64,000 nucleotides of DNA from a virus (taxonomy: Duplodnaviria > Caudoviricetes), in IMG/VR virus record IMGVR_UViG_3300027805_000006; one strand, written 5' to 3'. The notes under the pieces were generated by a model. That model worked only from the letters and a program-made list of their open reading frames with translations. It was not told where the DNA came from and searched no databases. Positions within the stretch are counted from its first letter, which is position 1; every line of letters starts with the position of its first letter. A program made the translations under genes and the position numbers. Below, piece by piece: positions 11,955 to 63,049 of the stretch.

Positions 11955-12014
11955 GTATGTTTATAAAAAGTTAATAAAGTATATACTGGGTGTAACTTAT
12001 AGTGATTTTTTTAA

Positions 12015-20982: not shown

Positions 20983-21257
20983 TGTTTACACCTTGCGCGG
21001 ATAGCGGCTGCGCAGACGGAGATCTGCCATGCAGCACTGCGCAGACTGATTGTTTCATCCGTATCTGCGCCGTCACATGCCTGTTCATTTTTCATTGCTT
21101 TGGCATCGCACACCTTCGCACACGCCTCACGCTCGGCAGCGGCAACAAGTTCAGCAAAGCGCGCGAACACGGGGTAGAGATCGCGCTCTACCCACGCGAC
21201 GTGTTCAAACATGGCCCCAGCCTCCTGCGCCATATGCATGATGTCGTCTCTGGTCAT
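20979..21257 (-). CDS. distant MNER-like family member
   Basis: MTRDDIMHMAQEAG...RFAELVAAAEREAC shares the central FAEL..EC core. Confidence 0.65.
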   Translation of the reverse strand: MTRDDIMHMAQEAGAMFEHVAWVERDLYPVFARFAELVAAAEREACAKVCDAKAMKNEQACDGADTDETISLRSAAWQISVCAAAIRARCKQ

Positions 21258-21769: not shown

Positions 21770-21838
21770 TCTAATCCCTCGTAAAACATTATGCGCCACA
21801 TTTCTTTTACAATTTTAATCAAAAATCAACCTGCGCAA

Positions 21839-31559: not shown

Positions 31560-32318
31560 TTATGCTCGTAGGATAGATGGTTCTTGAGAAGACCTCTGTG
31601 TTTTGGTCTCAGGAGAATCAAGGTATGTTAGGAGTTCCCTAACTATCTCTGAGCGCACGCAGTCCTGATTTGTAAAGCGAATAACATTTATATTGCGGCT
31701 GACGCCTGCCAATTTTCTGCTTATCCACCTTAGTCCATTCTCACTGCCACCACGTAAATCACTTTGAGTATCATCTCCATTAATGGCAAACTGACTGTAT
31801 TCACCAATCCGTGTCACAAACAACTTCATTTGCTCTACAGTTGTGTTTTGCGCCTCATCTAGAATGACATAACAGTTGTTGAAGGTACGACCCCTCATAT
31901 AGGCAAGAGGCGCAAATTCAATTTTGCCACTGTCAAGAAGTTTCTTTGACATAGTTGGACCAACTAGGTCATTCAAAGCATCTAGTAATGGGAGAAGATA
32001 CGGTTGAATTTTTTCTTCAAAGGTGCCAGGAAGGAAACCTAGATTTTCTCCGGCTTCGCACACTGGACGTGTAATGACTACTTTTGAAACTTGGTTGCTT
32101 AGTAACTTTGAGACTGCTACCGACATTGCGATGAAGGACTTACCTGACCCAGCAGGACCTGCGCCAATTGTGAGAGTTGATTCTTCTAGCGACTCTTTAT
32201 ACAGTCGCTGAGATTCATTTTTTGGAAGTGGATTGAATTTTATCCGAATTACTTTTGCACTTTCTTCATTAATTGGTTGAGGATAGCGCTGTTTTGCTAC
32301 TGCTAATCGACGTCCCAT
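31560..32318 (-). CDS. phoH: PhoH-family ATPase
   Basis: GPAGSGKS, ITRP, GFLPG, YMRGRT, ILDEAQN, GD..QSD. Confidence 0.95.
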   Translation of the reverse strand: MGRRLAVAKQRYPQPINEESAKVIRIKFNPLPKNESQRLYKESLEESTLTIGAGPAGSGKSFIAMSVAVSKLLSNQVSKVVITRPVCEAGENLGFLPGTFEEKIQPYLLPLLDALNDLVGPTMSKKLLDSGKIEFAPLAYMRGRTFNNCYVILDEAQNTTVEQMKLFVTRIGEYSQFAINGDDTQSDLRGGSENGLRWISRKLAGVSRNINVIRFTNQDCVRSEIVRELLTYLDSPETKTQRSSQEPSILRA

Positions 32319-32497
32319 TATTTCCTCCTACAGGAAGGGCCGTTTGGATATCCGGAGTTAAATAAACTCCGGGGCTTCGACAAACAGAGGGGCTGATAAA
32401 TTTGCAACGAGGCGAAATGACCATTTCTTGCTCGAACATGGTGTAGGATAAGCCCTTGCTTGTATTCATATCAGGCGTTTTAAACCCTGAAGTGAAA

Positions 32498-32857
32498 TTA
32501 GTCTTGACGTGCCAGAACGTACTTCATCCAGTCAACTGGACAAGGTCCTGCTCCCCAAGGCATTTCTTTTCCTGCTTGTAGGCAGTCCTTGAGAAACTGT
32601 GCTAGTTTGACTGTCTCTTCTGGCGTCAATGATTTGATTGATTCAACGACCTCAACAGATGTTGCACCAATTGAACCTGGATTTCTAAGCCCTGGCACAG
32701 TTGGCCTTACACCTTCATTGAAGTACTGTGATAGCCAACTAAGAACAAATGTTTGATAGTGATTTGTTACTTTTCCAGCCTTGATAATCTCATCTAGAGT
32801 CAGGTCAACGAGTTGTTCAGAGTGACCTTCATTTGTGATTGAGCGATGTAGATTCAT
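32498..32857 (-). CDS. hypothetical late protein
   Basis: TATAAATA at 32884-32891. Confidence 0.7.
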   Translation of the reverse strand: MNLHRSITNEGHSEQLVDLTLDEIIKAGKVTNHYQTFVLSWLSQYFNEGVRPTVPGLRNPGSIGATSVEVVESIKSLTPEETVKLAQFLKDCLQAGKEMPWGAGPCPVDWMKYVLARQD

Positions 32858-32951
32858 GATATGCTCTCAGGTTAGGATAAAATTATTTATAGAAACGTGG
32901 TCATCTTTGCATCATAAATAAATTTATAGCGCATATCAATATGGGAGATAT

Positions 32952-33176
32952 ATGGCCGAAAACACAGATGGTGAGTACTTTACAGACGTTCCGAGAACTT
33001 CTATCCCTAATGCAGATACCTGGGATACCCTATCTGCAAATCAACTAATTGAAACAAAAAATACGCTGATGAGTCAATTATTTGCATTTCAGAATAGACC
33101 TGAGATTGCAAAAACATTGCAAAAAGGAATTGCGAGGCTTGATGCGCTTATTTCTTTGCGGTCAGTCGGGTCTTAA
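32952..33176 (+). CDS. hypothetical late protein
   Basis: CATAAATA at 32913-32920; GGAG RBS. Confidence 0.65.
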   Translation: MAENTDGEYFTDVPRTSIPNADTWDTLSANQLIETKNTLMSQLFAFQNRPEIAKTLQKGIARLDALISLRSVGS

Positions 33177-33768
33177 TAGGTAGTTGGACTTCAGCGAAAT
33201 CAACAACTCTATCAACTAGACCGAACTTTTTAAGTTCGATAGGTGTAAGGTACCTATCAGACGGTGAAAATAAAACGTCACGTATTTGACGCTCATTCAT
33301 TGCTGAGTGTCTAAGGAAGTGGCGAATAAAGCGTTGCTCCAGCATTTTATAAGAAGTTTGTGTGGCAAGTAGTTCGTGGTGCTTGCCGCTAAAATAACCA
33401 GCAAATTGATGTGCCATAACTTCTGTATTTTTAGTGATTGCACGATGGCCTTTTGCACCGCCGGAAAGTAGTAGCACCCCCATTGACATAATATTCCCAA
33501 CTCCAACCGTAGCAATTGGAATTCTAGAAGTATCCATCAAGTCAATGATAGCAAATCCTTCTGCACATTCACCACCCACTGTATTCAGAATAAGAGTGAG
33601 GTGAGAACGTTCTCTCTGCAGAATGTTTGATTTAAGAATAAAATCACACGCTGCATATGATTTCTCTTCATCAACTTCACCAAAAAATAAATGAACACCC
33701 AAAGCATCTAAACTAATGGTGTCGTATTGATTTCCTGATTGGTCTTGGTCTTCAGGTTTCTTCTGCAT
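33148..33768 (-). CDS. clpP: ClpP-like protease subunit
   Basis: LNTVGG...GFAIID, MSMG (catalytic Ser), MAHQ (His), YLTP.E.KKFGLVD. Confidence 0.85.
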   Translation of the reverse strand: MQKKPEDQDQSGNQYDTISLDALGVHLFFGEVDEEKSYAACDFILKSNILQRERSHLTLILNTVGGECAEGFAIIDLMDTSRIPIATVGVGNIMSMGVLLLSGGAKGHRAITKNTEVMAHQFAGYFSGKHHELLATQTSYKMLEQRFIRHFLRHSAMNERQIRDVLFSPSDRYLTPIELKKFGLVDRVVDFAEVQLPIKTRLTAKK

Positions 33769-33862
33769 CTAATATCCCTCTGCGGGGTAACCTTACCGAT
33801 TTCTATTTACAGACAAAACAACCTCGTTTTGGGAGGGTGTATTTCATAATATGAAATACAGG

Positions 33863-34267
33863 TCATTCAATGACTTCCAGCCCCCAATCAACTTCCAAGC
33901 AATTTTTTGAATACCACTCCATCCAGTCGATTTCCTGACCTCGGAAAGCCCTCATTATCTGTGAAAACAGAGGTGTTTTTGCGTATTTTTGAGCCATCTG
34001 CTTAACATCCATGTCAGCCGCGGTGCCCGAAATAATTGCAATAATAACCTGCTCACGAGCGTCTTCAATCACCTCGCTGATGGTGCGCTGAACTAATTCA
34101 ATCGGCTTAGTTGATTTTCCAACCATTACAAAAGCAGCCCTGAGGTCGTCAGCAGTTCCAGCAGCAACTGCGCGTGCAATGTCACCGAAGAAGAGGTGAA
34201 CGCCCAGTGAGTTGAGCGATATGTCGTCGTACGTCAGAGCTTCCTGATCCTGCGATCTACGGGTCAT
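33863..34267 (-). CDS. chimeric ORF: ClpP-like N-terminus fused to RNA-ligase C-terminal domain
   Basis: YDDISLNSLGVHLFFG matches the clpP start; the rest aligns to the C-terminus of 35251..36390. Confidence 0.7.
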   Translation of the reverse strand: MTRRSQDQEALTYDDISLNSLGVHLFFGDIARAVAAGTADDLRAAFVMVGKSTKPIELVQRTISEVIEDAREQVIIAIISGTAADMDVKQMAQKYAKTPLFSQIMRAFRGQEIDWMEWYSKNCLEVDWGLEVIE

Positions 34268-34440
34268 CTGTGTCTCCAGCAGAGCTGAACGAGCTGAAGT
34301 ATTTAGCGAACCGGGCGAGGGGTGCTGAATTTTACCTGGTGAAATGCAGGTTAGAGGATCTCGACGACCTACGCGTGAAGGTGATAGTGTGATGAAGTAT
34401 GTGTCTTGAGTTCATAAATACACTTCAAATGGAGAACATA

Positions 34441-35301
34441 ATGAACTTTAAAACGTGGTATGAACAGCACCGCAGCAATCCCAACTGGGCAATTAACCTA
34501 AAAAAGCTTGATGAACCGCTATACAAAAAAGTTGCTTCATCCGTTGGCGATCGTTGGGCAGAGAAGGCCTATACCTTCATCAATCAGCTTTCTTCAAGAC
34601 CTGTATGCCGCTGCGGTGCAGAGAGACCGTGGTATGGTCGTAGCTATGCGCTGAGATGTAGTGTGCGGTGCTCAAATATTGAGACGGCTTCTTTTCGTGC
34701 GACAACTCTCAAGGCTAGAAGCGAAGAACAGAAAAAGAAAGTGGCCGCCAAGGCGCGTGCAACAAGCATTGAAAGATATGGCGAAGATTATGCAACTGCC
34801 CGGGCAAAAAAGCGATCAGCAAGCACTATCTCGCGTACTGAAAATGCTAGGAAGAAATCAATGCTTATTCGCTATGGAGTTTCAAATCCCGCGCAACTTG
34901 AAGAGGCACAGCAAAAGCGCAAATTAACCTACTCAAAGAGAACTGATGAACAGCGAGAGGCAACAAGACTAAAGAACTTTGCAACAAGATGCGCTAGAGG
35001 CATATCATTGCCTAATGATCATCCCTCAATCTTTAAGTCAAAGAAATCCTACACTCGTCGGGTGAGATACCTAACAAATGTTTCTGTGAAGCAGCATGGG
35101 CTTTTTTCAAGCAGATCACGAGAGCAACATGTAGATCACATCTTCTCTGTGCTAGATGGCTACAGGCATCATGTCTCACCAGAAGTATTAGCACATCCTG
35201 CAAACCTCAGGCTGCTGTGCGCAAGCAATAACAGCCGAAAAAACTCACGCTCAGATATCACCATCGATGAGCTGTTCGCCCGCATCGAGCACTGCAAGTG
35301 A
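34441..35301 (+). CDS. free-standing HNH homing-endonuclease-like protein
   Basis: CRCG...CSVRC, ERYG/IRYGVSN repeats, HVDHIFS...NLRLL...N.RK; CATAAATA at 34413-34420 and GGAG favour start 34441. Confidence 0.75.
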   Translation: MNFKTWYEQHRSNPNWAINLKKLDEPLYKKVASSVGDRWAEKAYTFINQLSSRPVCRCGAERPWYGRSYALRCSVRCSNIETASFRATTLKARSEEQKKKVAAKARATSIERYGEDYATARAKKRSASTISRTENARKKSMLIRYGVSNPAQLEEAQQKRKLTYSKRTDEQREATRLKNFATRCARGISLPNDHPSIFKSKKSYTRRVRYLTNVSVKQHGLFSSRSREQHVDHIFSVLDGYRHHVSPEVLAHPANLRLLCASNNSRKNSRSDITIDELFARIEHCK

Positions 35302-36390
35302 AAACTTGTGCTCGAGAACGTGCTTGTTATACCACTCGCGCAAGTTAATCTCCTTACCGTCCATCGCTCGCATGATCAATCCAAACAGGCGATGACCTTT
35401 TGCTGCTAGTGCTGCCTCCTTCTTTGTTTTACCAACAAGCTTTGCGTGCTCTGCCTCTACTTCAGCTTGTAGCTCTGCCAAATCTGCAAGGACAATGTTA
35501 TTGATGCGTCGAACTGGCGTTGGATCCTTATCAACCAGTGCAAACTGGCCAATCAAGTCATCGATCTTATCATCAAGGGCCAAGCGTGCTACATCACGCT
35601 CACGTAGGAATACAATGGTCCTGTGCAGGTCGCAGTACCACTTCGTCTTCAACTTAACCATGTCGCCACTCTCAAACTGGATTACCCAGCCCTCAAAGTT
35701 CTGTGTAGTAAGTGCGGCGCTCTTTAGTTTCTCCCAGGAAACATTTCCACCCTCAAGAAAGTCAGACATGAAGTTCTTAACAAGCGGGAACGGGCAGCCA
35801 CGAGCAGAAAGTTCTGCCTCAGTGAGGTATCTTCCTGAATTATTCTCACGAATATGTAGTAGCGTAAGTTCATCTGAATTATATCGCAACACTATTGGAA
35901 AACGTGGAGAAGTTACCTCAAAGGTTGGAGTCAAGTTTTGATTGAGAATGTCTTGAATCCATTCCTTGCACCCTGGAGTAGATGCGATGGAATCGGCAAG
36001 TGTCGCTTCATTTGTATGAAATGACTTCTTTGTCTTGAACTTGAAACCTCCACCTACAAGTGGAACTGGTACCACCATAGAGCCGTCCCGCTTCTCCATG
36101 ATGCGCGTTACCTTAGACCAGTTAATGTTTTCAGGCAGAGTGCTTTCACGCTCGCCAACATTGAAGAACTTATGCAGGTGCCGAGAAACTATTTTTCCAT
36201 CTTTGCCAAAGGTAATACCTCGGCACTCACGCTCAATACTCTCATTCTCACCAGAAAATACATCATCGTCCTGCAGCATGTAGCAGATAACAGTTAGACC
36301 GAATTCTTCATCGGCTTTTACGCGTATCTGGGGGACGTGCTGAATAAACTTGGTGACATCTGAAATGTCACAAATAACTGGAAAAGGCAT
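35251..36390 (-). CDS. rnlA: RNA ligase 1 (T4 RnlA-like)
   Basis: ECRGI.F...HKFFN.GE, motif I EKRDGS, FEVTS, EGWVI, VKLK. Confidence 0.9.
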   Translation of the reverse strand: MPFPVICDISDVTKFIQHVPQIRVKADEEFGLTVICYMLQDDDVFSGENESIERECRGITFGKDGKIVSRHLHKFFNVGERESTLPENINWSKVTRIMEKRDGSMVVPVPLVGGGFKFKTKKSFHTNEATLADSIASTPGCKEWIQDILNQNLTPTFEVTSPRFPIVLRYNSDELTLLHIRENNSGRYLTEAELSARGCPFPLVKNFMSDFLEGGNVSWEKLKSAALTTQNFEGWVIQFESGDMVKLKTKWYCDLHRTIVFLRERDVARLALDDKIDDLIGQFALVDKDPTPVRRINNIVLADLAELQAEVEAEHAKLVGKTKKEAALAAKGHRLFGLIMRAMDGKEINLREWYNKHVLEHKFSLAVLDAGEQLIDGDI

Positions 36391-49147: not shown

Positions 49148-50083
49148 TTATGCAGACATTTTAAAACTAATTGCAGGGTGAGGATCGTAGCCTTCAAGGA
49201 CGAAGTCTGCCATCTTGAAGGAATCGATATCACCTGAACTGTTGTTAATTACGAGGTTTGGTAAGGCACGAGGATTACGTTCTAACTGCTCCTCAACACC
49301 ATTAATATGGTCCTTATAGATGTGAACGTCTCCCATATTAATGATAAGTTCTGCAGGGGTATAGCCACATACACGTGCAAGCATATGTGTTAGAAGCGCG
49401 TACGACGCAATGTTAAATGGTAGCCCCAGCGCAGCATCTACAGAGCGTTGTGTCATCATACAACTTAGCATCTTGCCCTTTGAGACGTAGAACTGAGCAA
49501 ACATATGGCAAGGAGGAAGTGCCATTTGATCCAATTCTCCAACATTAAGGGCGCTAAGAATGATGCGCCGGTCAGTTGGGTTGTTCTTTAGTTTATTAAC
49601 CACAATGGAGAGTTGATCAACTTCTTCCTCAATAACTTTTGCACCATAGTACGCTGTGCCACCTTCTGGAAAGTGTAGAAAATCGTTATACCCGTCGACA
49701 GTATGCTTCTTCCATTTTCTCCATTGAACACCGTAAATGCGGCCAAGGTCTCCAGGAAATTTCGGCTTGTATAAAGACCCTGACGTCCCTTCTGCATTTG
49801 GTGACCAGATTGTCTTCTTGTTCTCATCGCGCGTGCCGTGCAAAATTTCTGCCAGCCGCCGCTCATCACCACTGCCCTCAATGAACCATAGAAGTTCAGA
49901 AAGAATAGACTTGAATGCCATCTTCTTTGTAGTGACTAAAGGGAAACCCTGAGTAAGGTCAATGTTCATTGAATGACCAAAACTAGAGAATGTACCTGTG
50001 CCAGTGCGGTCAGCCCTTTCCTCTCCTCTGTCTATGAGATGGTACAGAAGATCTAGATAATCTGCTTCAAAGGTATATGACAT
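49148..50083 (-). CDS. thyA: thymidylate synthase
   Basis: DRTGTGT, FPLVTTK, YGVQWR, ALPPCH, QRSVD..LGLPFN, H.Y. Confidence 0.95.
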   Translation of the reverse strand: MSYTFEADYLDLLYHLIDRGEERADRTGTGTFSSFGHSMNIDLTQGFPLVTTKKMAFKSILSELLWFIEGSGDERRLAEILHGTRDENKKTIWSPNAEGTSGSLYKPKFPGDLGRIYGVQWRKWKKHTVDGYNDFLHFPEGGTAYYGAKVIEEEVDQLSIVVNKLKNNPTDRRIILSALNVGELDQMALPPCHMFAQFYVSKGKMLSCMMTQRSVDAALGLPFNIASYALLTHMLARVCGYTPAELIINMGDVHIYKDHINGVEEQLERNPRALPNLVINNSSGDIDSFKMADFVLEGYDPHPAISFKMSA

Positions 50084-54470: not shown

Positions 54471-54499
54471 TTTCACCTGGTGGTTTTTACCAGGTGAAA
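54471..54499 (-). terminator. hairpin terminator after guanylate-kinase-like gene
   Basis: TTTCACCTGGT-N7-ACCAGGTGAAA. Confidence 0.55.
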
Positions 54500-54520: not shown

Positions 54521-55228
54521 TCAACCCATTCCGGCTGCTACTCTGGTGTTTCTAAGAGCAATACCTTCTTCAACCATCTTAACTGCCTTGGGAAGATCAT
54601 CCCCGGGAACTACAAGATCCCAATTGAAAAGATTAATCCACCGGCGCTCATTACTAGTACAGCTTACTACCCTGCGCTGATGCTCAGTTGCTAGTTGGGA
54701 AAGAGTTCTCTTTGCAATTTCTGCACCTGTTTGAAAGAACTCATTGGTGTATTTTCCCGGTGATGGCTGCAACATATCAACAACATCCCAGGAATTTGCA
54801 ATGGTTCGATGGAGCAGGCGCTGAAGGCGCTGTTCTTCCACACAATGAACGTAGATCTTGAAAATATCCCAACCATTCTGGAAACACTTCTTCATATAGA
54901 TTTCCAAGCCATTGGGCTCAAGTACAACAACCGGAGGTGTATCTGCTTCCATCTTCTTTTTCATTTCTACGTGTGTTACACCATAACGCGTCTTATTGAA
55001 TTCTACAAGTTCAAAAAACAGACCATCGGCTTCTGCTTCCTTCGACTGTTGGTTGCTAATAAAGTTGTAATCAATACCTTCTTTTTCATCTCGCCTTGGG
55101 TGACGTGTGGTTGTACTGACGATCCTGCCAAATCCCTGCTTTGAAACAAGTTCATTCAGCAAGTAACTTTTACCGCTGCAGGTAGGGGCAGTAATGGCTA
55201 TAAGAGTTGGTTTATTGAACTTTAACAT
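54521..55228 (-). CDS. gmk: guanylate kinase-like protein
   Basis: APTCSGKS, STTTR.PR..E..G.DY.F, YG. Confidence 0.85.
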   Translation of the reverse strand: MLKFNKPTLIAITAPTCSGKSYLLNELVSKQGFGRIVSTTTRHPRRDEKEGIDYNFISNQQSKEAEADGLFFELVEFNKTRYGVTHVEMKKKMEADTPPVVVLEPNGLEIYMKKCFQNGWDIFKIYVHCVEEQRLQRLLHRTIANSWDVVDMLQPSPGKYTNEFFQTGAEIAKRTLSQLATEHQRRVVSCTSNERRWINLFNWDLVVPGDDLPKAVKMVEEGIALRNTRVAAGMG

Positions 55229-55246
55229 ATTAATTATCCCTTCGGC

Positions 55247-56443
55247 TTATTGATTATGCTCTGCTAAAAATTTCCCAGCGGTGCGTAGTGATTGAATAAT
55301 GACTGCCCACATATCAAGATATTGAAATGTACCGCATCGCCCAATGAATGTCACTCCCCTTTTATTTTCTGCCATATCGACATATCGATTGTAGAGGGCA
55401 CGATGGGGACAGTCCTTTTCTGTTGTCTTTACGGGGTAGTACCGCTCCAAAGAGTTGTCACGGTAATCACAGGGCTCCTCTACAGTTAGAGTTGTCCAGT
55501 GGGGGTTATCTCCGTGCGACGGCAAGTTTTTCCATTCTGTAACTCGCGTATGAGGACCAGAATGGGTAAAATTTAAAACTGATGTGCTTAGCACCCGTGG
55601 TAGTGGTACAGAGTACGTGTTCATCTTAACCGATCGCCAAGGTAGTTCTCCTAAAGAACAATCGAAATACATATCAATTGGTTCAGAAGTAAAAATGTGC
55701 TTAAATTCCTCTTTTTTCTGCACTTCGTCTCTTGAGCAGTTTAACTGTACGCTAATGTTTTCGTGATCTAAAATACGACGGAACATTTCAGTGTAACCAT
55801 CTTTTGGCAGAAACTGGTACTTATCTTTTGGAAAATAGAGATAACTACGTGTTTCAACGTTTGTTGGAATCCTTGCCGCAACTGAGGCAGGCAGTTCTTC
55901 AAGTTCTAGCCCCCACATCTTCTTCGTGTAAGGCGCAAAAAAGAGATCACATAGTTCTTTTCCAACTGAGTTTTCAACGTGCTGACGGCTGTTGGTTACG
56001 GTTGGGTGGTGCTCAACCAACGTCTCAAGGAAGGCTGCATGCGAGCCCTTCTTGTAGTCGATCATAGCACCTTCTGCATCGTAGTCGATCTGGTCGTTGC
56101 GATCTGCCCAGACATCGAACTGATCAACGAAGACTTCCTCGATGGTATCGTGGTTGATGGGTAGAGGAACACACGTACCATTTGGCAGAAGAGCCTCAAC
56201 CTCGTGCTTGTACTCAACCCAATCAGTAAAGCGTGATGCCCATTTCTGCACATCGTCGTTGGACGTGTGCCATAGATGGGGGCCATACTTATGAACGCGG
56301 ATGCCGTGCTCATTCACGTAGTCATATGCATTTCCAGCGATATGGTCACGCTTGTCAATAACAAGCACCTTTTCACCAGCCTCAGCCAGTTCTCGTGCAA
56401 CAGTAGCACCCGCAAATCCAGCGCCGACAATTAAAATTCTCAT
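55247..56443 (-). CDS. glf: UDP-galactopyranose mutase
   Basis: GAGFAGA, IAGNAYD, HKYGPH.WHT, PYT.KMWG, RYYP, GR...YLDM. Confidence 0.92.
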   Translation of the reverse strand: MRILIVGAGFAGATVARELAEAGEKVLVIDKRDHIAGNAYDYVNEHGIRVHKYGPHLWHTSNDDVQKWASRFTDWVEYKHEVEALLPNGTCVPLPINHDTIEEVFVDQFDVWADRNDQIDYDAEGAMIDYKKGSHAAFLETLVEHHPTVTNSRQHVENSVGKELCDLFFAPYTKKMWGLELEELPASVAARIPTNVETRSYLYFPKDKYQFLPKDGYTEMFRRILDHENISVQLNCSRDEVQKKEEFKHIFTSEPIDMYFDCSLGELPWRSVKMNTYSVPLPRVLSTSVLNFTHSGPHTRVTEWKNLPSHGDNPHWTTLTVEEPCDYRDNSLERYYPVKTTEKDCPHRALYNRYVDMAENKRGVTFIGRCGTFQYLDMWAVIIQSLRTAGKFLAEHNQ

Positions 56444-56467
56444 TTGAATTATCCTTAGTTACAAGAT

Positions 56468-56704
56468 TTAAATATCCTCTACAGCATACTCAATTTCTTC
56501 GGATGAAACTGGAGACTTTAGAATTACGCTTAGAACGGTGTGAATTGACTTTGCTACCGCCAGCTCGCCTTGGTCCTCGCGAAACTGCCGCAGAACATCT
56601 AGGTTGTACGTAATAAGCGGAACATCAGGCTTATCGTGCAGGAAGAAGGAAAGAACTTCCTGTCCGTCTTGATTAGAAACCTGCTTAAAAAATCGATAGT
56701 TCAT
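56468..56704 (-). CDS. hypothetical protein
   Basis: ATGA-coupled between the GT-like gene and glf. Confidence 0.6.
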   Translation of the reverse strand: MNYRFFKQVSNQDGQEVLSFFLHDKPDVPLITYNLDVLRQFREDQGELAVAKSIHTVLSVILKSPVSSEEIEYAVEDI

Positions 56705-57867
56705 TTTTGAGCCTCCAGTACTGCTTTGATTTCTTGCTGCTGAACGTTCTTGTCCAGCGGGTGAATTGAATAGATTGCCTGCTTTTGTGCATCAGCAATG
56801 TGTGAGAGTTCGCTGTCACTAGCGTGAATAAGGTCAGTCGCCTTTAGATCAATCAGAGGGAAGTCTTTGCCATAATAAACTTCAAGTTCTTTCTTCTCTC
56901 CGATAAGAATACAGTTTGCATCTGCAGTTTGCTGGGGACGTGAACGCCACCACCCGCTGCCAGCGTGTTCATAGCCGGGCATCAGACACGCCCAGTCACG
57001 GTAAAACACCTCGCACATCTGGTCTTCGGTAAGCCGCTTCTGTGTTTCTGCCTTTGAGCCATACAGATCAACTGGCCAGGAACCAATTGTACCTTCCTCA
57101 TCATTCTTAGGATTGCCAGTATATCCCTGCTTCTTTAGCCACTTCTGCGTCTTTGATTGGACCAAACTTGCAAAGTTGAATCGACGCTCCTTCTTTGGTG
57201 CAGGCCCAGCAGTATATGATAGAAGTGATGGCGTAAAGGTTGAGTCTTCTACTCCTTCGTGAAGGAAATCACCTGGCTTGCGGTTGCGGTGATACGGGTT
57301 AGGGTTGAAGGTGTAGATGCGGTCACGCGGGTATTTTACCGCATCAAAGAGCAGGTGCGGACCATAATTCTCAGGATCGTTCAAGTGTGTAGTGTCAAAA
57401 GCACATACCAACATCCGATTCTTTCGAGTGATGATAGTATTAATTGCCTGAAGATAGATCTCCTTGTGCTTAGTGACTTCCTCGATTGTGGTCTTGTTCA
57501 CACCTAATATAAAGTCACAGGACAGTTCTTCCCATTTTTGGCACTTTTCGAGTCCTTTGAACAAATCGGGTGCTTGCCAATCGTCAACCCCAAGAATGCA
57601 ATCAGGACGCTGGCTGATTGCCCACAGTCCTTTAAATGTATGTGTTGCAACCAGTTGGCGAGGACCGGCAATATAAACAATTACTTCATCATATGAGGAG
57701 AGATCTTCACCGATTTCAACCTCACGCTGCTCAACCTGATGCCCCATATCTACAAGCGCATTAAATAGACTGTAATGCGCAGGCACCACCTTTAAATTCA
57801 TTTTGAGATAGTGCTTACGCACACTCTGTGATTTATTCATACCGGTGATCAAGATTTTCTTCTTCAT
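56701..57867 (-). CDS. GT-B fold glycosyltransferase-like protein (candidate DNA glycosyltransferase)
   Basis: KILITG...L.DMGHQV...YDEVIVY N-lobe; WPVDLYG...R.Q.TA.A.CILIG C-lobe reminiscent of T4 beta-glucosyltransferase. Confidence 0.55.
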   Translation of the reverse strand: MKKKILITGMNKSQSVRKHYLKMNLKVVPAHYSLFNALVDMGHQVEQREVEIGEDLSSYDEVIVYIAGPRQLVATHTFKGLWAISQRPDCILGVDDWQAPDLFKGLEKCQKWEELSCDFILGVNKTTIEEVTKHKEIYLQAINTIITRKNRMLVCAFDTTHLNDPENYGPHLLFDAVKYPRDRIYTFNPNPYHRNRKPGDFLHEGVEDSTFTPSLLSYTAGPAPKKERRFNFASLVQSKTQKWLKKQGYTGNPKNDEEGTIGSWPVDLYGSKAETQKRLTEDQMCEVFYRDWACLMPGYEHAGSGWWRSRPQQTADANCILIGEKKELEVYYGKDFPLIDLKATDLIHASDSELSHIADAQKQAIYSIHPLDKNVQQQEIKAVLEAQK

Positions 57868-57987
57868 TTTATTCCTTTAAAGTAAGGGCCCCACACCTAT
57901 ATACCTAGGTATTATACACGTTTTAAAAATTAATACAGAATTTTTTAAAGGTCGAAAAAATGCTCACCCGCCTTGGCTGAAGCATTC

Positions 57988-58206
57988 TTAAAACCTCATC
58001 ACTTCATCTACTACAAGTTTATCTGCCTCTAAGAGTGCAATCTTTTCACTGAGTTCTTCTGGACTTCTGACATATAGAAACTTGTTTGATGCTAGCGTCT
58101 TTTTTGGGTCAGCAGAGCAGTAGATAAATGTCACGTATCCTTGCTGCTTTGCTGTGATGAAATCTTCCTGTAGTGTCTCAGCAGTACTGAGAGATGTAAC
58201 CTTCAC
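57988..58206 (-). CDS. 72-aa ORF, possible glycosyltransferase C-terminal remnant
   Basis: D.K..L....FLYV.S.EEL.EKI..LE.D resembles the T4 BGT C-terminus; GTGA-coupled. Confidence 0.4.
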   Translation of the reverse strand: MKVTSLSTAETLQEDFITAKQQGYVTFIYCSADPKKTLASNKFLYVRSPEELSEKIALLEADKLVVDEVMRF

Positions 58207-58778
58207 GATAGAGCCTCACTCAAGATGACATCCTTGGGCTTGAACCCGCCCAGGGCCGGGTCAGTAACACTAATGATGCGCTTATCACGAATAATGGAGC
58301 GATTAAATGCAGCAACAAATCGATTTTGCTCTTCCATTCGGTCGTCTTCGCCGCCAAGACTTTCGCCATCATCTACAAAGTGCCGAGATACTGAAAAATC
58401 CTCAGTGAGCAGGATTAGGCGAATATCAGCAGAGTCTAGGTGGTGATTTTTTTCAAAGTCAAACACGTAATCACCGCTATAGGCCCTATACATTGGTGAA
58501 TATACTGCCTCACCTAGGTGCCAGCGGTCAAAGATAATTCTGGCACCACTCTTTGCCATGATCATGGAATTCCTAAAACTTTCCTGTTGGTAGTGATATG
58601 ACTGCAGGCTTGTATTTGGAACTCCAGTAATAGGAGAAGAATGTGCATAGGCATTTAACTTCTTTGGCTTACTAAAGTGAATAACTTCGTAATAACCAAG
58701 GGTATTCAAAATACCCTCAATAAGAGAACTTTTTCCAAGGCGGTCGAGGCCTTCAATCGCAAATACGTGCTTCATCAT
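58203..58778 (-). CDS. thymidylate/dNMP kinase-like protein
   Basis: IEGLDRLGKS P-loop; IFDRWHLGE.VY. Confidence 0.85.
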   Translation of the reverse strand: MMKHVFAIEGLDRLGKSSLIEGILNTLGYYEVIHFSKPKKLNAYAHSSPITGVPNTSLQSYHYQQESFRNSMIMAKSGARIIFDRWHLGEAVYSPMYRAYSGDYVFDFEKNHHLDSADIRLILLTEDFSVSRHFVDDGESLGGEDDRMEEQNRFVAAFNRSIIRDKRIISVTDPALGGFKPKDVILSEALS

Positions 58779-59083
58779 ACCTCCAACGTTAGGTCATATT
58801 GACCAGTTTTTGTGTTTAAAACTACACCAGTATCGTCCTCAATGGTGGCATTCAAATCCACATTTGCATTGCTGTCATCTAAGAAGTCACTTCCGAAATC
58901 ATTTTCGATTATGTTGATTAGTTCGAATGCTGCCGTGGAATAAACTGAATTACCCCCTAAGCGAACACTACACACTAATGCAGTGATAAGTTCAAGTTGA
59001 TTTACATTGATTTGAAGTATGATGGAGCCATTCCCAATTACTGGTGCATCATCATCTTCGCTGTATCTTGATGAGATAATCAT
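58775..59083 (-). CDS. hypothetical protein
   Basis: Coupled acidic ORF. Confidence 0.6.
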   Translation of the reverse strand: MIISSRYSEDDDAPVIGNGSIILQINVNQLELITALVCSVRLGGNSVYSTAAFELINIIENDFGSDFLDDSNANVDLNATIEDDTGVVLNTKTGQYDLTLEV

Positions 59084-60204
59084 ATAAATCCAATTCCATT
59101 AGTTTTCTTTTGGTGAAGTTGCGTATTGAAAAGTTCTGCAAGCGTAAATTCGTTTCCATCTGGAAGTTCCTTATCTACGCCAGCTTCTTCATACACCTTC
59201 TTAGATTCATCGCGGGTAAGTGCCCTAAACTGCAGAACGTCAAAGCAACGTCCTTCACGTAGAAGAGCGCTGTCAATGTCCCTGATGTTTGGTAGGTTGG
59301 TTGAGAAGACTAGTTTCTTGTCAGCGGCAGACACAAGACCGTCTGATACATTGAGGAACTTATGCATCATTGAATTGCCATCTTGACGTGCAGAGAGAAA
59401 GGCATCTGCATCTTCCATCACAAGGAAGCTACAATCATCCTCAATAAACCCGGCAAAGAAGTCATCAGTGTTGAGAACCTTTTCATCATAGGCAACCTTA
59501 GCATCTCCGCCGGCTCGATGAATTAAATTCTTAATGAATGTTGTTTTGCCAGTGCCTGGCTGACCAATAAGAATTAAAACGTTTGCACTTGAATTTAGGA
59601 AATCTTCAATATACTCATTTAGCCCCTTGTTTAACCAAGGATAGGCGCTCTTTAACGCAGGGCGGTAGTTCAGCGGGACGGAAGTGCTATCACCACGTGC
59701 ATTATACACCCACTCGATCAGGTTCTCAGCACGCTTAAACTTATTATCAAAGTACTTTTCCCATTCTGAGCAAAAGGCTACACTTCCAACAAGATTTACA
59801 TCAATCTTTCCTTTTGCAGAATTCACAGTAAGAAGCCCATCATCATACTGCACAACAACCTTTGTGCTGTGGAAGAAGGTAAATGCCTCAAACTTCATAT
59901 CCACAACCCACTTGTTGAGCCTAAACTCAACAGGTGTAATCCAAGTGCAAGAAACATCTAGCGTCTGCACCTTGGATAAGAAACGGTTGCGCAGAAAATC
60001 TGCAAATACCCAGTCCTCTGAGCCATATACTCCCAGGACTACTTCTGGGCGAGCGATTTCTTGTTTGAACATATGAACATCCTCAAATATATTATGTGTA
60101 TGATGGTTTAGTTTTCGGCGCCGCATTTGTTTTACACTCCGTTTAATTGTACTTCTTCTTTTCCTAGAAAGTTTTGATATAAGCGAATTAATTGAATCAC
60201 TCAT
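59080..60204 (-). CDS. AAA+ ATPase (BCS1-like)
   Basis: GQPGTGKT, LVMEDAD, STN, D.ALLR.GRCFD; alternative start at 60072. Confidence 0.85.
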   Translation of the reverse strand: MSDSINSLISKLSRKRRSTIKRSVKQMRRRKLNHHTHNIFEDVHMFKQEIARPEVVLGVYGSEDWVFADFLRNRFLSKVQTLDVSCTWITPVEFRLNKWVVDMKFEAFTFFHSTKVVVQYDDGLLTVNSAKGKIDVNLVGSVAFCSEWEKYFDNKFKRAENLIEWVYNARGDSTSVPLNYRPALKSAYPWLNKGLNEYIEDFLNSSANVLILIGQPGTGKTTFIKNLIHRAGGDAKVAYDEKVLNTDDFFAGFIEDDCSFLVMEDADAFLSARQDGNSMMHKFLNVSDGLVSAADKKLVFSTNLPNIRDIDSALLREGRCFDVLQFRALTRDESKKVYEEAGVDKELPDGNEFTLAELFNTQLHQKKTNGIGFI

Positions 60205-60213
60205 TTGGGCACC

Positions 60214-61965
60214 TTATAATGTCATTTCTTTTAGTGATGACTTAAAAAGAGTTTGAAATTCATTTGACCACTCATTTGTTTTTGCTGTCCATACTCTCTG
60301 AACCGCACTATCTAGAATGTACGTAGTTGCCCAATCCTCCTGACTTCTGACCGACCGACCTGCACCTTGTACGACCTTCATCAGTGCCTGCAGTTGGTAG
60401 ATATCTGGAAAGTTATCTAAAATTGTTTGAATTCTTTTGTCACCAAGAGATGCATAAGGCATTTTAACTAAAACTTGAAACCTGCTCAAATCTCCTGGCA
60501 GGTCGATGCCTTCAAAACCAGAAGGAGTAACCAACACTGCTGGACCTTTAGAGTGCTGCTTGAAGTCTGCTAGAATAGTTGCTAACTTTTCTCCACGTAC
60601 GTGCTCAAATATCTTGAAGTTTCCTTTTTCTTTTCTAAGTGAAGCGCAGACTGTTTCAGTCACTACGAAACTTGGGGTTAGGATAATTCCTCTTTCTTCT
60701 TTCTCAGTGTGGTGCTTTACAATCTCTGTCACAGTCCTGCTGAGTTTAGTGACAGTTTCAGTTTCCTGCATGCTTCGATAGTTAAGAGACTGTGGCTTGT
60801 AGAAGATAACCTTCTTGTTTTCGGGTAGAAACTGGGGGTCAAGACGGATATGCTTCGTCTTGCCTGGAAGTGTCATTGTGCGTTTTGCAAACTGCTCGCT
60901 GATAGTAGCAGACATTAACAGATTATGTTCAGCGTTATCAAGCACTTCAAACATATCTCCAATGAAGATGGGCTTTACGTGTATTTCATTTTCACTTTGA
61001 CGTGCAGAAGGATCTTTCTTCTTGTACTCAAACACGTGAGGGTACTGAAAGGTAAAGAGGTCATCAATCTTGCAGCCAAAATTATAGTACTTCTTTGCAA
61101 GTTTCTGCAGTTTTAGGTACTTAGATGCATTGCGAATATTTCTATCTGCATTTGACTTAGCTGTTTCACTAATAAGGTTATAAACCTCAAGCAGCTGCTT
61201 TAACCAAGTTGAGTAATTTTGCTCAGTGATTTGCCCTTTTATGAGTGCATCGCGCATCACCTTTAAGTCCCTGAAGATGTCGGTATTACCAAGCGAAAGA
61301 TTATCATTTACCTCATCGGCACATTGCGCCAACCGCTTCTCAGAAATATAGATGGCATTGTGGTCAGTAAAAAGGTCATTCAGCAGGTGTGCCTCGTCAA
61401 ACACAGCAACGGTGCGCCGGGGTAGAGGTGCCTGCGCGTACATCCTATCAATAAAGTAGAAGGCATAGTTCGTAATCAAATGACGAGAAGTTGCCTTTAG
61501 GGCACGTGCCTTTGCATACTCGCATGAATTGCAGTAGGTATCAATAAAGTTCTGCATTCCATTTTTTCTAAAGAGTGTGATTGCACAATTTTCGGCAGTT
61601 TGTGGCTCGTCGTCGGTGCTTAGAGCGCTGCACTCATAGTTTGCTGCACCTTTCAGGAGAAGAAAGGTATTGTCACCTGCCTTCTCAGCAAAGGTCTGAT
61701 GGTACTGGTCAAGCAGAACATTTGTTGCAGAGAGCAAAAATGATGCATTCTCCCTCGTTGCTGGATTTTTGATGCTGTGAATAACTTCAGCAGCAACCGT
61801 TCCAATAATTGACTTTCCAGTTCCCGTTGGTGCCGATAGCACCACGTTCTTTGCCTCTTCTTCTAGGAAGGCTTCACAAATTCTAGATACGTGATTTACC
61901 TGATTATCCCTCGGTGTAAATCCAAATTTACTAAATGCTTCTTCAATTTGCTTCTGATATGACAT
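60214..61965 (-). CDS. DinG/YoaA-family SF2 helicase
   Basis: APTGTGKS, DEAH, EGIDLPG, KMPY, QGAGRSVRS..D; Cys cluster C...C...C..C. Confidence 0.9.
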   Translation of the reverse strand: MSYQKQIEEAFSKFGFTPRDNQVNHVSRICEAFLEEEAKNVVLSAPTGTGKSIIGTVAAEVIHSIKNPATRENASFLLSATNVLLDQYHQTFAEKAGDNTFLLLKGAANYECSALSTDDEPQTAENCAITLFRKNGMQNFIDTYCNSCEYAKARALKATSRHLITNYAFYFIDRMYAQAPLPRRTVAVFDEAHLLNDLFTDHNAIYISEKRLAQCADEVNDNLSLGNTDIFRDLKVMRDALIKGQITEQNYSTWLKQLLEVYNLISETAKSNADRNIRNASKYLKLQKLAKKYYNFGCKIDDLFTFQYPHVFEYKKKDPSARQSENEIHVKPIFIGDMFEVLDNAEHNLLMSATISEQFAKRTMTLPGKTKHIRLDPQFLPENKKVIFYKPQSLNYRSMQETETVTKLSRTVTEIVKHHTEKEERGIILTPSFVVTETVCASLRKEKGNFKIFEHVRGEKLATILADFKQHSKGPAVLVTPSGFEGIDLPGDLSRFQVLVKMPYASLGDKRIQTILDNFPDIYQLQALMKVVQGAGRSVRSQEDWATTYILDSAVQRVWTAKTNEWSNEFQTLFKSSLKEMTL

Positions 61966-62942
61966 TAATTCTTCCTTGGTAGAAAGATCTTTGCACTCTC
62001 TTCTTCATCGCCACCAAAAAAAGCCTTTACCAAAGATTTCCAATATGGTGAAAGATTGTGAAAATCATTGATGCTTTCAAAATTAAATTTTTCTGGATAA
62101 CCACAGTCTCGCCAGCCGCTCTCAATATTTGCGAGCGTTGCTGCGATTGTCTCATCAAACTTATCCATCTCAATCATAGAAACTTCAGAGGTGCTTTCAT
62201 CAGCAATTACCTTATCTGCCATTTCATAGTGCCGTGAATAGAGATGCATCGAGCCGGCGTTATGGAAGTAATAGCCAAGTTGAAGGTCTGGGTATACCTC
62301 CCTAAGTTGTAGCATCATACATTCTTGCAGCATAGTAAATTGGAAAACATCATTCGTAAAACCCAAAATTACGTCATTGCTGCGCATATTGACAATTAGA
62401 TGTAGTTTATCTTCTCGAATAAACCACTGCAGCGTCAGTGTGCAGGCTACATCCTTATTTCCAGCGTGGCGGTCAGTAGGCAGATGAATGTTCATAACTG
62501 CCTGGCGGCTATCTTTATCAGCAGTTAGGATGTTAATAGTTTGGTGCCATTGATTAATCTTGTTTTCGCCGAAGTAGAGAGCCGGTAGAATTGAATGACC
62601 AAACATACGGTGACCGTAGTTTGAATTCACGGTGCCAGCAGGATAGTTGTCTTGATTTCCAGAGTTGATGATACCTTCCCAAAATTTTGCATATGGCACA
62701 ATTCCATCCACCGTATTTTTACCAGTAAGATACCAAATAAACTCACCTAGCAGATACTTTACATTTGTCTTTCTTGCAGGAAAAGTAACTACTCGATTTC
62801 GAGGGTCAGTAAGGGTAATATTGTAGTTGAGCAACTCGCGGGTTTCTGAACCGCGCGGGTTAGAAACCATGCCATTTTCTCTCAGGTTGAAAAGGCACGC
62901 CCGGAAATCACTGTTGAGGCGGAAGGATGGTGTATTTTCCAT
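61965..62942 (-). CDS. gp42: thymidylate-synthase-fold dCMP hydroxymethylase/hydroxylase (T4 gp42-like)
   Basis: NSNYG, D..SRQA, DVACT (catalytic Cys), MRSNDVILGFTND (Asp at the dCMP-specificity position), GSMHLY. Confidence 0.8.
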   Translation of the reverse strand: MENTPSFRLNSDFRACLFNLRENGMVSNPRGSETRELLNYNITLTDPRNRVVTFPARKTNVKYLLGEFIWYLTGKNTVDGIVPYAKFWEGIINSGNQDNYPAGTVNSNYGHRMFGHSILPALYFGENKINQWHQTINILTADKDSRQAVMNIHLPTDRHAGNKDVACTLTLQWFIREDKLHLIVNMRSNDVILGFTNDVFQFTMLQECMMLQLREVYPDLQLGYYFHNAGSMHLYSRHYEMADKVIADESTSEVSMIEMDKFDETIAATLANIESGWRDCGYPEKFNFESINDFHNLSPYWKSLVKAFFGGDEEESAKIFLPRKN

Positions 62943-63012: not shown

Positions 63013-63049
63013 AAGAATAAAAAGTAGGGAACCATATTGGTTCCCTACT
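63013..63049 (-). terminator. intrinsic terminator
   Basis: 12-bp stem AGTAGGGAACCA-TAT-TGGTTCCCTACT with U-tract on the minus strand. Confidence 0.8.

Follow-up and report, generated by a model that had tools for sequence, protein, structure and literature searches.

A glycosyltransferase-mutase gene block of a freshwater jumbo phage, predicted to act in furanosylation of 5-hydroxymethylcytosine in DNA

The gene block and its surroundings

The stretch of DNA analysed here, the window, comprises 64 kb of the ~330-kb genome of a freshwater jumbo phage. Between positions 62942 and 54521, its minus strand carries a block of 10 co-oriented, tightly packed genes (Table 1), in which neighbouring genes overlap by 1-4 nt or lie 9-24 nt apart, with the exception of a 120-nt gap ahead of the glycosyltransferase (GT) gene. 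An earlier note on this DNA had named a second thymidylate-synthase (TS) fold, a kinase, a GT, glf and a guanylate kinase; these genes are all present on the minus strand, with the same coordinates. The separate, ordinary thyA that it reported is confirmed by its PF00303 match and indicates that thymine synthesis is normal.

The block also holds members that had not been listed before: a helicase, an AAA ATPase and three small ORFs (102, 72 and 78 aa). The DinG/XPD-like helicase lies between the TS and kinase genes in jumbo-phage relatives only, not in T4-like loci, and is probably a block member outside the modification pathway. The AAA ATPase is conserved in the closest jumbo relatives only, and the guanylate kinase after Glf is conserved in jumbo relatives. 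Neither the 102-aa nor the 78-aa ORF has a match in Pfam or PHROG.

Table 1. Genes and hairpins of the block and the ordinary thyA, with their positions in the window
Feature	Position	Strand	Evidence or remark
Terminator-like hairpin just upstream of the block	63023..63049	-	12-pair stem, then T run
TS-fold enzyme, predicted dCMP hydroxymethylase (T4 gp42 type), 325 aa	61965..62942	-	PF00303 1e-22
DinG/XPD-like DNA helicase	60214..61965	-	Helicase_C_2 2e-22; ResIII and DEAD matches; phrog_2488 2.7e-91
AAA ATPase	59080..60204	-	PF00004 2e-9; phrog_14322 4.7e-66
102-aa ORF	58775..59083	-	Homologs in loci L016, L017, L019, L021
Thymidylate-kinase-like nucleotide kinase, predicted hm-dCMP kinase	58203..58778	-	phrog_761 2.8e-12
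72-aa ORF	57988..58206	-	Same position in relatives: GalE-like epimerase
GT-B glycosyltransferase, unnamed family, predicted DNA 5hmC glycosyltransferase	56701..57867	-	AF2 pLDDT 94.9
78-aa ORF between GT and Glf	56468..56704	-	4-nt overlap with GT stop
UDP-galactopyranose mutase (Glf)	55247..56443	-	PF03275 1e-51; NAD_binding_8
Guanylate kinase, C-terminal extension of ~90 aa	54521..55228	-	PF00625 4.5e-17; phrog_1815 5.8e-30
Terminator-like hairpin closing the block	54471..54499	-	11-pair stem, then A/T-rich tail (AATATTTTAT)
Ordinary thymidylate synthase ThyA, outside the block	49148..50083	-	PF00303 2.3e-98

Active-site signatures and folds

The best solved relatives of the TS homolog are the CMP hydroxymethylase MilA (3.6e-31) and the dCMP hydroxymethylase of T4 (1.4e-16). 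According to a published rule, replacement of N177 by Asp gives cytosine specificity and replacement of L143 by Asp or Glu gives water access and a hydroxymethyl product; D169N is diagnostic of 5-hydroxy-dCMP (5hodCMP) synthases (PMC13326640). The motifs DVACT, MRSND and GFTND of the window enzyme represent, in E. coli ThyA numbering, L143D with Cys146, a retained D169, and N177D. Both the cytosine-specificity and the water-access substitutions are thus found (GFTND; D-V-A-C), and the catalytic Cys is present, DVACT aligning with DFMCT of T4 and DVACT of MilA. At the positions of MilA K133 and A176, Arg and Ser are of the deoxy type. MRSND is common to the window enzyme and to gp42 of T4, Aes012 and FBB1, whereas the proven 5hodCMP synthases RB69 gp48 and RL38J1 gp216 have MRSQN. 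The D/D/D signature, with D169 kept, recurs in 65/65 linked TS sequences. From L143D, the retained D169 and N177D together, the TS homolog is predicted to be a dCMP hydroxymethylase of the T4 gp42 type and not a D169N 5hodCMP synthase as in RB69 and RL38J1. Membership of the latter class was considered and rejected, the window enzyme reading MRSND.

The Pfam match of the kinase is below the cut-off. Its AF2 model has a pLDDT of 90.8, and the protein contains a P-loop (IEGLDRLGKS) and a DRWHLG motif. With Foldseek, B. subtilis YorR comes first (2axp, 3kb2) and thymidylate kinases next, the same fold neighbours that are given for DLP3 gp78 (PMC13326640). In the RB69, DLP3 and RL38J1 clusters, a "nucleotide kinase" adjoins the first transferase (PMC13326640). 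The window kinase shares the fold neighbours of these proteins and its gene lies beside the first transferase, which places it in the class of RB69 gp45, DLP3 gp78 and RL38J1 gp214, the BLASTP match to RB69 gp45 being confined to the P-loop region.

The GT belongs to a family in which none of the 75 members has a Pfam match. Its AF2 model has a GT-B fold of two Rossmann domains, and two aligners both place T4 beta-glucosyltransferase (BGT) nearest to it among solved structures. The top five Foldseek matches in the PDB are all BGT (best E 1.5e-7). VIA gives Z 17.5 against BGT (rmsd 3.5 A over 290 residues) and Z 16.2 against T4 AGT, BGT being ahead of PimA by only ~1 Z unit and GT-B folds being all alike. 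On the sequence level, the GT falls outside the BGT family: PDB sequences searched with a profile yielded no match, and the hhalign comparison with BGT is marginal (E 1.7e-4, probability 50%), in register over the N-terminal 71 residues only. To gp215, the first, base-proximal transferase of RL38J1, it is not homologous (hhalign probability 0.15%). Near-invariant in the family are D96-W97, E281 and G303-x-G305-W306-x-R308-x-R310; in T4 BGT, D100 is the catalytic base, and an Arg and a Glu bind UDP. On the basis of the model, the protein is predicted to be a DNA 5-hydroxymethylcytosine (5hmC) glycosyltransferase of a new family, a distant structural relative of BGT.

The assignment of Glf is based on a full-length GLF domain (model positions 2-203 of 203) with an N-terminal FAD-binding GxGxxG, matched by NAD_binding_8 (1.9e-18). 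It matches the D. radiodurans UDP-galactopyranose mutase (UGM) with 3.8e-73 and is 33% identical to the Glf of Rhizobium phage RL38J1. In a phmmer alignment to 3hdq, the equivalents of W184, R198, R305, Y335, R364 and Y370, which we take to be the substrate-binding residues of the D. radiodurans enzyme, are all conserved.

Linkage across phage genomes

Linkage was compared across 80 IMG/VR loci with the GT family, which dereplication at 90% identity reduced to 41 lineages. Of the loci that could be tested, 65/74 have Glf directly downstream of the GT (median gap, 6 nt), and 57/61 have a TS homolog upstream. After dereplication, Glf is directly downstream in 37 of the 41 lineages, and a gp42-type TS is nearby in 33 and elsewhere in the genome in 2. 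The arrangement is not due to chance, since dozens of independent viral contigs show the same TS-GT-Glf linkage; glf does co-occur with gp42 and this GT across phage genomes, a point that the earlier note had raised. The GT-Glf lineages span Straboviridae, one Kyanoviridae phage, uncultured T4-like contigs and jumbo phages.

T4-like loci have the order gp42, dCMP deaminase, GT, Glf, GalE-like epimerase and, further on, UvsX. In T4 the order is 42, beta-gt, segA, uvsX, and the GT of the T4-like contigs occupies the beta-gt slot; it lies between gene 42 and uvsX in relatives L022 and L084, a position that is not applicable to the jumbo-phage window. The epimerase accompanies the GT-Glf pair in 55/80 loci and completes a route from UDP-Glc to UDP-Galf. 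The genes around the pair belong to nucleotide metabolism and are not structural or lysis genes.

The loss of Glf maps to one GT clade (L071, L078, L084, L087 and others), so a furanose donor is not obligatory for the family. In four lineages a TS homolog is missing within 10 kb, and at least two of these loci have ThyX upstream instead. Phage C48C1 is without a TS-fold gene but has a Tet/JBP oxygenase (3.3e-17) immediately upstream of GT-Glf. This case fits the rule, because Tet/JBP is the other known route to 5-hydroxymethylpyrimidines in DNA, and it resembles the phage glycosylation of TET/5mC-derived 5hmC; the window phage differs in its nucleotide-level TS route. Furanose sugars and a mutase are unmentioned in Burke et al. 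2021 (PMC8256090) and in bioRxiv 10.1101/2023.12.21.572611.

A proposed pathway and its alternatives

The gene identities, folds, active-site signatures and conserved linkage established here suggest that the block may represent a T4-type two-stage cytosine hypermodification with a different sugar, leading to galactofuranosyl-5hmC in DNA; we give this reading a probability of about 0.6. Before replication, the TS-fold enzyme would convert dCMP to 5-hydroxymethyl-dCMP, which the thymidylate-kinase-like kinase would phosphorylate and a host NDP kinase would bring to the triphosphate, so that the phage polymerase could incorporate 5hmC. The co-transcribed Glf would turn host UDP-galactopyranose into the donor UDP-galactofuranose. 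After replication, the GT-B enzyme would move the sugar to the hydroxymethyl group in DNA. The product, 5-(galactofuranosyloxymethyl)cytosine, may shield the DNA against restriction, CRISPR nucleases and defences tuned to glucosyl-5hmC. What we infer within this scheme is DNA 5hmC as the substrate, the nature of the donor and of the anomeric linkage, how far C is replaced, and a protective role. The core of the earlier note, a C5-oxygenated cytosine that then receives a furanose from the phage's own mutase, is supported by all computational tests run: by the cytosine-specific Asp of the TS homolog, a GT-B fold nearest to T4 BGT, the coupling to Glf and the co-occurrence with gp42-type genes.

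The block is reminiscent of the glucosyl-5hmC pathway of T4 (gp42, gp1, gp56, alpha- and beta-glucosyltransferases) in the gp42-type signature, the pre-replicative nucleotide kinase step and the post-replicative GT-B transferase, which in T4-like relatives has the place of beta-gt. It differs in a kinase that is thymidylate-kinase-like and not gp1-like, and no gp56-type dCTPase is seen; a dCMP deaminase and GalE were likewise not found within the 64 kb of the window, and the complete replacement of C put forward in the earlier note is no more than a possibility. A further difference is that the GT is coupled to a phage Glf and, in relatives, to a GalE-like epimerase; this implies that the sugar donor is a furanose and not host UDP-glucose.

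RB69 and DLP3 share with the block a furanose on a C5-oxygenated cytosine, the order kinase, first transferase, TS homolog, and GT-B transferases, but their acceptor is 5-hydroxycytosine (5hoC; D169N) and their D-Araf is made by an isomerase, phosphatase, kinase and uridylyltransferase, with no mutase. A further comparison is with RL38J1 (Pootjesviridae), which has a galactosyl/glucosyl-5hoC cluster (Lee et al., NAR 2026, PMC13326640). Its DNA contains galactose on a C5-oxygenated cytosine, and the phage encodes a Glf that was proposed to supply UDP-Galf for galactosylating 5hoC (PMC13326640). A TS homolog makes the acceptor base in RL38J1, as is predicted for the window enzyme, and in both phages a thymidylate-kinase-like kinase lies beside the first transferase and a MazG-like gene is nearby. 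However, the TS of RL38J1 is a D169N 5hodCMP synthase, its first transferase is unrelated to the window GT, and its Glf lies ~60 kb from the transferase instead of being directly coupled to it. The view that neither route nor base had been described has to be narrowed: galactosylated 5hoC by way of a phage Glf has already been proposed (RL38J1, PMC13326640), and it is for the 5hmC version with this GT family that the searchable literature gave no description.

For the base, 5hmC or 5hoC had been left open in the earlier note; 5hmC is now predicted and 5hoC disfavoured, because D169N is absent from the window enzyme and all 65 linked homologs. That the sugar is ether-linked to 5hoC, as in RB69, DLP3 and RL38J1, would agree with the use of this base by RL38J1, the sole phage with a Glf for which the DNA chemistry has been solved and published, and with MilA, the closest solved relative of the window TS, being the top match for proven 5hodCMP synthases as well. 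Given that RB69 gp48 and RL38J1 gp216 do have D169N, and that the window GT has no similarity to gp215, this seems very improbable. The choice between Galf and Araf had also been left open; Galf is favoured in view of the GalE-like epimerase of the relatives. For an arabinofuranose, Glf would make UDP-L-Araf from UDP-L-Arap, a weak UGM substrate, and the SDR epimerase of the relatives would be a UDP-xylose 4-epimerase. Such enzymes do belong to the GalE family, and RB69 and DLP3 have cytosine that carries arabinofuranose; yet among solved structures the epimerase matches UDP-glucose 4-epimerases best, the active site of Glf is canonical, UDP-Galp is common in bacteria while UDP-L-Arap is not, and none of the four enzymes of the D-Araf pathway is encoded in the window. 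Arabinofuranose is therefore rather improbable.

It could further be imagined that 5hmC is made and glycosylated from a common pyranose donor, UDP-glucose or UDP-galactose, with Glf serving another glycan, for example on the virion or cell surface. UDP-glucose is the donor of T4 BGT, the nearest fold, and one clade of the same family does without an adjacent Glf. But this loss is restricted to that clade, whereas the close coupling of GT and Glf holds in diverse phage groups and is mostly accompanied by the epimerase that completes the route to UDP-Galf, which makes a pyranose donor unlikely. Nor does it seem likely that the GT-Glf pair is directed at protein, lipid or polysaccharide, in superinfection exclusion or virion decoration, and that the TS homolog yields bare 5hmC. 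The nearest Swiss-Prot folds of the GT model are indeed ordinary polysaccharide and small-molecule GT-B enzymes, glf has been annotated in published phage genome papers as a host-like cell-wall gene (PMC6630229), and phage 25 was regarded by Petrov et al. as being without glucosyltransferases. Against this stand the DNA glucosyltransferase as the nearest solved structure, the beta-gt slot, surroundings of nucleotide metabolism, and the gp42-type linkage in most lineages, with Tet/JBP in the sole TS-less genome.

Galactofuranosylation of 5hmC, the preferred reading, can also be put more broadly: 5-(galactofuranosyloxymethyl)cytosine would be an undescribed base, made by a new Glf-coupled family of DNA glycosyltransferases that is widespread among freshwater and marine T4-like phages, cultured Aeromonas Tulanevirus, Erwinia phage FBB1 and jumbo phages of ~330-360 kb, the cassette being plugged into both routes to 5hmC, the nucleotide-level gp42 type and Tet/JBP on DNA. 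For this broader statement as a whole we regard the chances as even. No description of the base was found in the searchable literature. Phages classically use glycosylated cytosines as protection from restriction enzymes and Cas nucleases, and the same bases are attacked by type IV systems such as GmrSD and McrBC. To our knowledge, few combinations are chemically established, namely glucosyl- and gentiobiosyl-5hmC, arabinofuranosyl-5hoC and Gal/Glc-5hoC. Should the reading be confirmed, 5hmC with a furanosyl hexose would represent a new sugar-base combination, a new DNA glycosyltransferase family would be defined, and a function would be provided for phage-borne glf, which genome papers have called a host cell-wall gene. 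Attachment of an acid-labile, non-mammalian furanose to 5hmC by such a transferase could be used as an orthogonal label in 5hmC mapping, and the modification could account for difficulties in sequencing or cloning the DNA of these abundant aquatic phages. Petrov et al. 2010 raised the question of bare 5hmC in Aeromonas phage 25-type phages, in which gene 42 is present with "no glucosyltransferase". This question now becomes answerable, and can be tested at once, since the module is present in cultured phages: Aeromonas phages 25, Aes012 and phiAS4, and Erwinia phage FBB1.

The gene block and its proposed pathway

Ten co-oriented minus-strand ORFs, assigned with Pfam and PHROG, fill positions 54521-62942 of the window. 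Neighbouring ORFs overlap by 1-4 nt or are separated by short gaps, and terminator-like hairpins flank the block just outside both ends. The gene content listed in the earlier note, namely a second thymidylate-synthase-fold (TS) homolog, a thymidylate-kinase-like gene, a GT-B-like gene, glf and a guanylate kinase gene, together with an ordinary thyA, is correct, and the gene identities are confirmed by Pfam and PHROG. A helicase, an ATPase and three small ORFs further belong to the block. The T4 late promoter motif TATAAATA is absent from the block and has a chance-level frequency across the window; sigma-70-like promoters in the block are also near chance, with 22 against a shuffle mean of 17.5. 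Contigs from a freshwater metatranscriptome match parts of the block at at least 99% identity, but DNA carry-over is possible, so that these matches are not counted as evidence of expression.

Features of the block and of the remainder of the window
Feature	Position	Strand	Assignment or placement
TS-fold protein	61965-62942	-	PF00303, 1e-22
DinG/XPD-like helicase	60214-61965	-	
AAA ATPase	59080-60204	-	
102-aa ORF		-	between AAA ATPase and thymidylate-kinase-like gene
Thymidylate-kinase-like protein	58203-58778	-	phrog_761, 2.8e-12
72-aa ORF	57988-58206	-	between kinase and 388-aa protein
388-aa protein (glycosyltransferase, GT)	56701-57867	-	no Pfam match; phrog_14998 (unknown function)
78-aa ORF		-	between 388-aa protein and Glf
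UDP-galactopyranose mutase (Glf)	55247-56443	-	PF03275, 1e-51
Guanylate kinase	54521-55228	-	
Canonical ThyA	49148-50083		2.3e-98; neighbours are topoisomerase II subunits and DnaJ
T4 RnlA-like RNA ligase	35251-36390		
ClpP-like protease	33148-33768		
PhoH	31560-32318		
Thoeris inhibitor Tad3 homolog	21254-21799	-	PF25185, 4.3e-35
CBASS inhibitor Acb3 homolog	16573-17421	-	PF25187, 6.8e-48

In the proposed pathway, the TS homolog would convert dCMP into 5-hydroxymethyl-dCMP, which the thymidylate-kinase-like enzyme would phosphorylate to the diphosphate and the NDP kinase of the host to the triphosphate, to be incorporated into DNA. The GT-B enzyme would then glycosylate 5-hydroxymethylcytosine (5hmC) in the DNA; the donor would be UDP-galactofuranose (UDP-Galf), produced when Glf acts on the UDP-Galp of the host. 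The analysis shows what the genes are, with their signatures, folds and linkage; acceptor and donor are what we infer from them, and any anomeric linkage, stoichiometry and protective role would have to be regarded in the same manner. Window Glf aligns over its full length with the mutase of D. radiodurans (3.8e-73) and keeps the Arg, Tyr and Trp residues that bind the substrate. The nearest folds to the kinase model (pLDDT 90.8) are B. subtilis YorR and thymidylate kinases, and the same fold neighbours have been described for the "nucleotide kinase" encoded next to the first transferase of DLP3, RB69 and RL38J1 (Lee et al., PMC13326640). The guanylate kinase probably contributes to the supply of dGTP, and the two kinases of the block may jointly cover the role of the single T4 gp1.

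The transferase and the predicted modified base

Not one of the 75 GT family members has a Pfam domain, and a family profile search against PDB sequences and Pfam gave no match; the fold of the family is revealed by structure only. An AlphaFold2 model, built on a diverse alignment that came from an exhaustive representative search, has a mean pLDDT of 94.9. In a Foldseek search against the PDB, ranks 1-5 are all T4 beta-glucosyltransferase (BGT; best E 1.5e-7), which also comes first in a VIA search (Z 17.5, rmsd 3.5 A over 290 residues), followed by PimA (Z 16.3) and T4 alpha-glucosyltransferase (Z 16.2). At the sequence level, the GT profile has a weak in-register N-terminal match to T4 BGT (E 1.7e-4, probability 50%), and the best six-frame match of T4 BGT in the 64-kb window is this same N-terminal part of the GT gene. 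As modelled, the 388-aa protein is a GT-B enzyme. GT-B folds are generic and the margin of BGT over other GT-B enzymes is small; the assignment as a DNA transferase owes more to the genomic context than to the fold.

The best solved relatives of the TS homolog are the CMP hydroxymethylase MilA and T4 dCMP hydroxymethylase. Residues K133 and A176 of MilA reportedly set the preference for CMP or dCMP, according to a structural paper on that enzyme. Arg and Ser occupy these positions in the window enzyme, with a numbering that agrees with the residue alignment, and this points to a deoxynucleotide as the probable substrate. In E. coli ThyA numbering, the residue-level alignment shows Cys146 to be present and L143 to be replaced by Asp (motif DVACT), while Asp169 is retained (MRSND) and N177 is replaced by Asp (GFTND). 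It has been shown that N177D is a mark of cytosine substrates and L143D/E of non-methyl products, while D169N distinguishes the 5-hydroxy-dCMP synthases, which depend on flavin, of RB69, DLP3 and RL38J1 (Lee et al., NAR 2026, PMC13326640). In the extracted sequences, RB69 gp48 and the RL38J1 synthase gp216 have MRSQN, whereas gp42 of T4, Aes012 and FBB1 has MRSND. Judged by this motif, the window TS homolog is of the hydroxymethylase type.

The earlier note had suggested that cytosine is replaced by either 5hmC or 5-hydroxycytosine, carrying galactofuranose (Galf) or arabinofuranose made by the phage's own mutase. The core of this interpretation is supported, narrowed to 5hmC and, most likely, Galf. 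5-Hydroxycytosine was rejected as the base, since D169 is kept in the window enzyme and in all linked TS sequences: the D/D/D signature is found in 65/65 of these and D169N in none.

Linkage across phage genomes

Homologs of the GT occur in 29 GenBank phage records, with glf adjacent in the carriers examined. Carriers include Aeromonas Tulanevirus phages (phage 25, Aes012, phiAS4 and others), Erwinia phage FBB1 and phage C48C1; the Tulanevirus phages and FBB1 are T4 relatives with gp42 elsewhere in the genome. Scanning IMG/VR with a closer GT alignment, rather than the diverse one, yielded 80 GT loci. Of the 74 loci that extend far enough, 65 have Glf immediately downstream of GT and co-directional with it (median gap 6 nt); of the 61 in which TS could be tested for, 57 have a homolog upstream, with a median distance of 1 kb. 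Dereplicated at 90% identity, the loci form 41 lineages. Glf is present in 37 of these, and TS is close by in 33 lineages and at another place in the genome in 2, so that the co-occurrence of glf with gp42-like genes and this GT, which the earlier note had put forward as a check, holds. The three Glf-less lineages form one clade (support 100/99), which points to one event, either a loss of Glf or a change of donor. Four lineages have no nearby TS, and in at least two of those loci ThyX is upstream instead. A small clade (L047, 7073-9641; L055, 8144-11026) has the order ThyX - epimerase - GT - Glf; it lacks a hydroxymethylase of the ThyA fold within 10 kb and encodes a conserved protein of about 340 aa, of unknown function, upstream.

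Phage C48C1 (OQ984149, Kyanoviridae), with GT and Glf and no TS-fold gene, could be taken as a counter-example. Immediately upstream of its GT-Glf pair, however, there is a Tet/JBP dioxygenase gene (3.3e-17), completing a three-gene cassette at 8580-12027 in which all members are annotated as hypothetical. Tet/JBP enzymes provide an alternative, DNA-level route to 5-hydroxymethylpyrimidine. This adjacent oxygenase explains the case, and the counter-example was rejected; the GT-Glf cassette thus seems to travel with whichever enzyme makes the hydroxymethyl acceptor. Its gene content predicts that C48C1 DNA carries TET-derived, furanosylated 5hmC or 5hmU, a prediction that concerns a cultured or complete genome.

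T4-like contigs have the genes arranged as gp42 - dCMP deaminase - GT - Glf - SDR epimerase - (C5-methylase-like) - UvsX, and T4 has them as 42 - beta-gt - segA - uvsX; therefore, the GT family takes the place of beta-gt. Among solved structures, the SDR epimerase is best matched by UDP-glucose 4-epimerases. Among the 80 loci, an epimerase homolog accompanies GT-Glf in 55 and a MazG-like pyrophosphatase in 42. The epimerase and Glf would complete a route from UDP-Glc over UDP-Galp to UDP-Galf, and the MazG-like protein is a candidate dCTPase. In L022 (12860-14047) and 38 further T4-like loci, Glf and the epimerase are immediately followed by a C5-cytosine DNA methyltransferase-like gene (PF00145, 7e-18). 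The phages concerned encode a gp42-type hydroxymethylase as well, and their genome would be expected to be devoid of unmodified C. In L084 (11083-13422), the UvsX beside a Glf-less GT is split by a Hint/intein segment together with an ORF that has a NUMOD3 motif. On the 292-kb viral contig of L069, a TnpB/Cas12f-like OrfB_IS605 gene at 5070-6308 lies upstream of the GT-Glf pair, at a distance of about 3.7 kb.

Precedents and the nature of the phage

In full-text searches, with most subscription journals outside their coverage, Lee et al. 2026 (preprint 2025) was alone in connecting the Glf of a phage with the modification of DNA, having proposed UDP-Galf as the source of the galactose on 5-hydroxycytosine in RL38J1 (PMC13326640). 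Neither a mutase nor furanose hexoses are mentioned in the paper on RB69 or in the TET-glycosyltransferase preprint. Because of the RL38J1 precedent, the claim in the earlier note that such a route had not been described has to be tempered. The system of the window differs from that of RL38J1 in acceptor chemistry (its TS keeps D169), in transferase family (no homology of GT to the first transferase gp215) and in gene organisation, Glf being coupled to the transferase. Aeromonas phage 25 was listed by Petrov et al. 2010 among phages with gene 42 and without glucosyltransferases, and the mode of DNA modification in these phages was left open. Since cultured Aeromonas and Erwinia phages carry the module, the reading is directly testable. 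In the Tulanevirus phages, a 348-aa protein without Pfam match directly follows the Glf-GT pair (Aes012, L002, 7126-8172) and could be a second transferase.

Within the 64-kb window, neither a dCTPase nor a dCMP deaminase nor GalE was detected by Pfam on about 55 ORFs, and a relaxed tblastn returned only noise for its queries, which were T4 gp56, dCMP deaminase, the epimerase and a MazG-like protein. One more distant relative has a MazG-like gene directly after guanylate kinase. In the closest jumbo relatives (L016, L019 and L021; about 9078-10004), the gene between the kinase and GT encodes a GalE-like epimerase (about 300 aa); at this place (57868-58202), the window has the 72-aa ORF instead. 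The epimerase was apparently lost or never gained by the window phage, which must therefore rely on host UDP-galactose.

The block has no DNA-level relatives by megablast among 50,697 GenBank phage records. The GT candidate is located on a 329,993-bp contig, contigs of the closest relatives reach 358 kb, and that of one close GT relative is a complete genome with terminal repeats. None of the near relatives is cultured; by topoisomerase (48% identity), the cultured phage that comes nearest is RsoM2USA, a jumbo phage of Ralstonia. From these contig sizes, this relative and the freshwater metatranscriptome matches, it follows that the window phage is an uncultured freshwater jumbo phage. With its homologs of Tad3 and Acb3, two known anti-defence proteins, the phage seems to stack counter-defences on top of DNA modification. 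Finally, the genes for PhoH, the ClpP-like protease and the RnlA-like ligase, which fall within 31560-36390, are auxiliary genes typical of T4-related phages.
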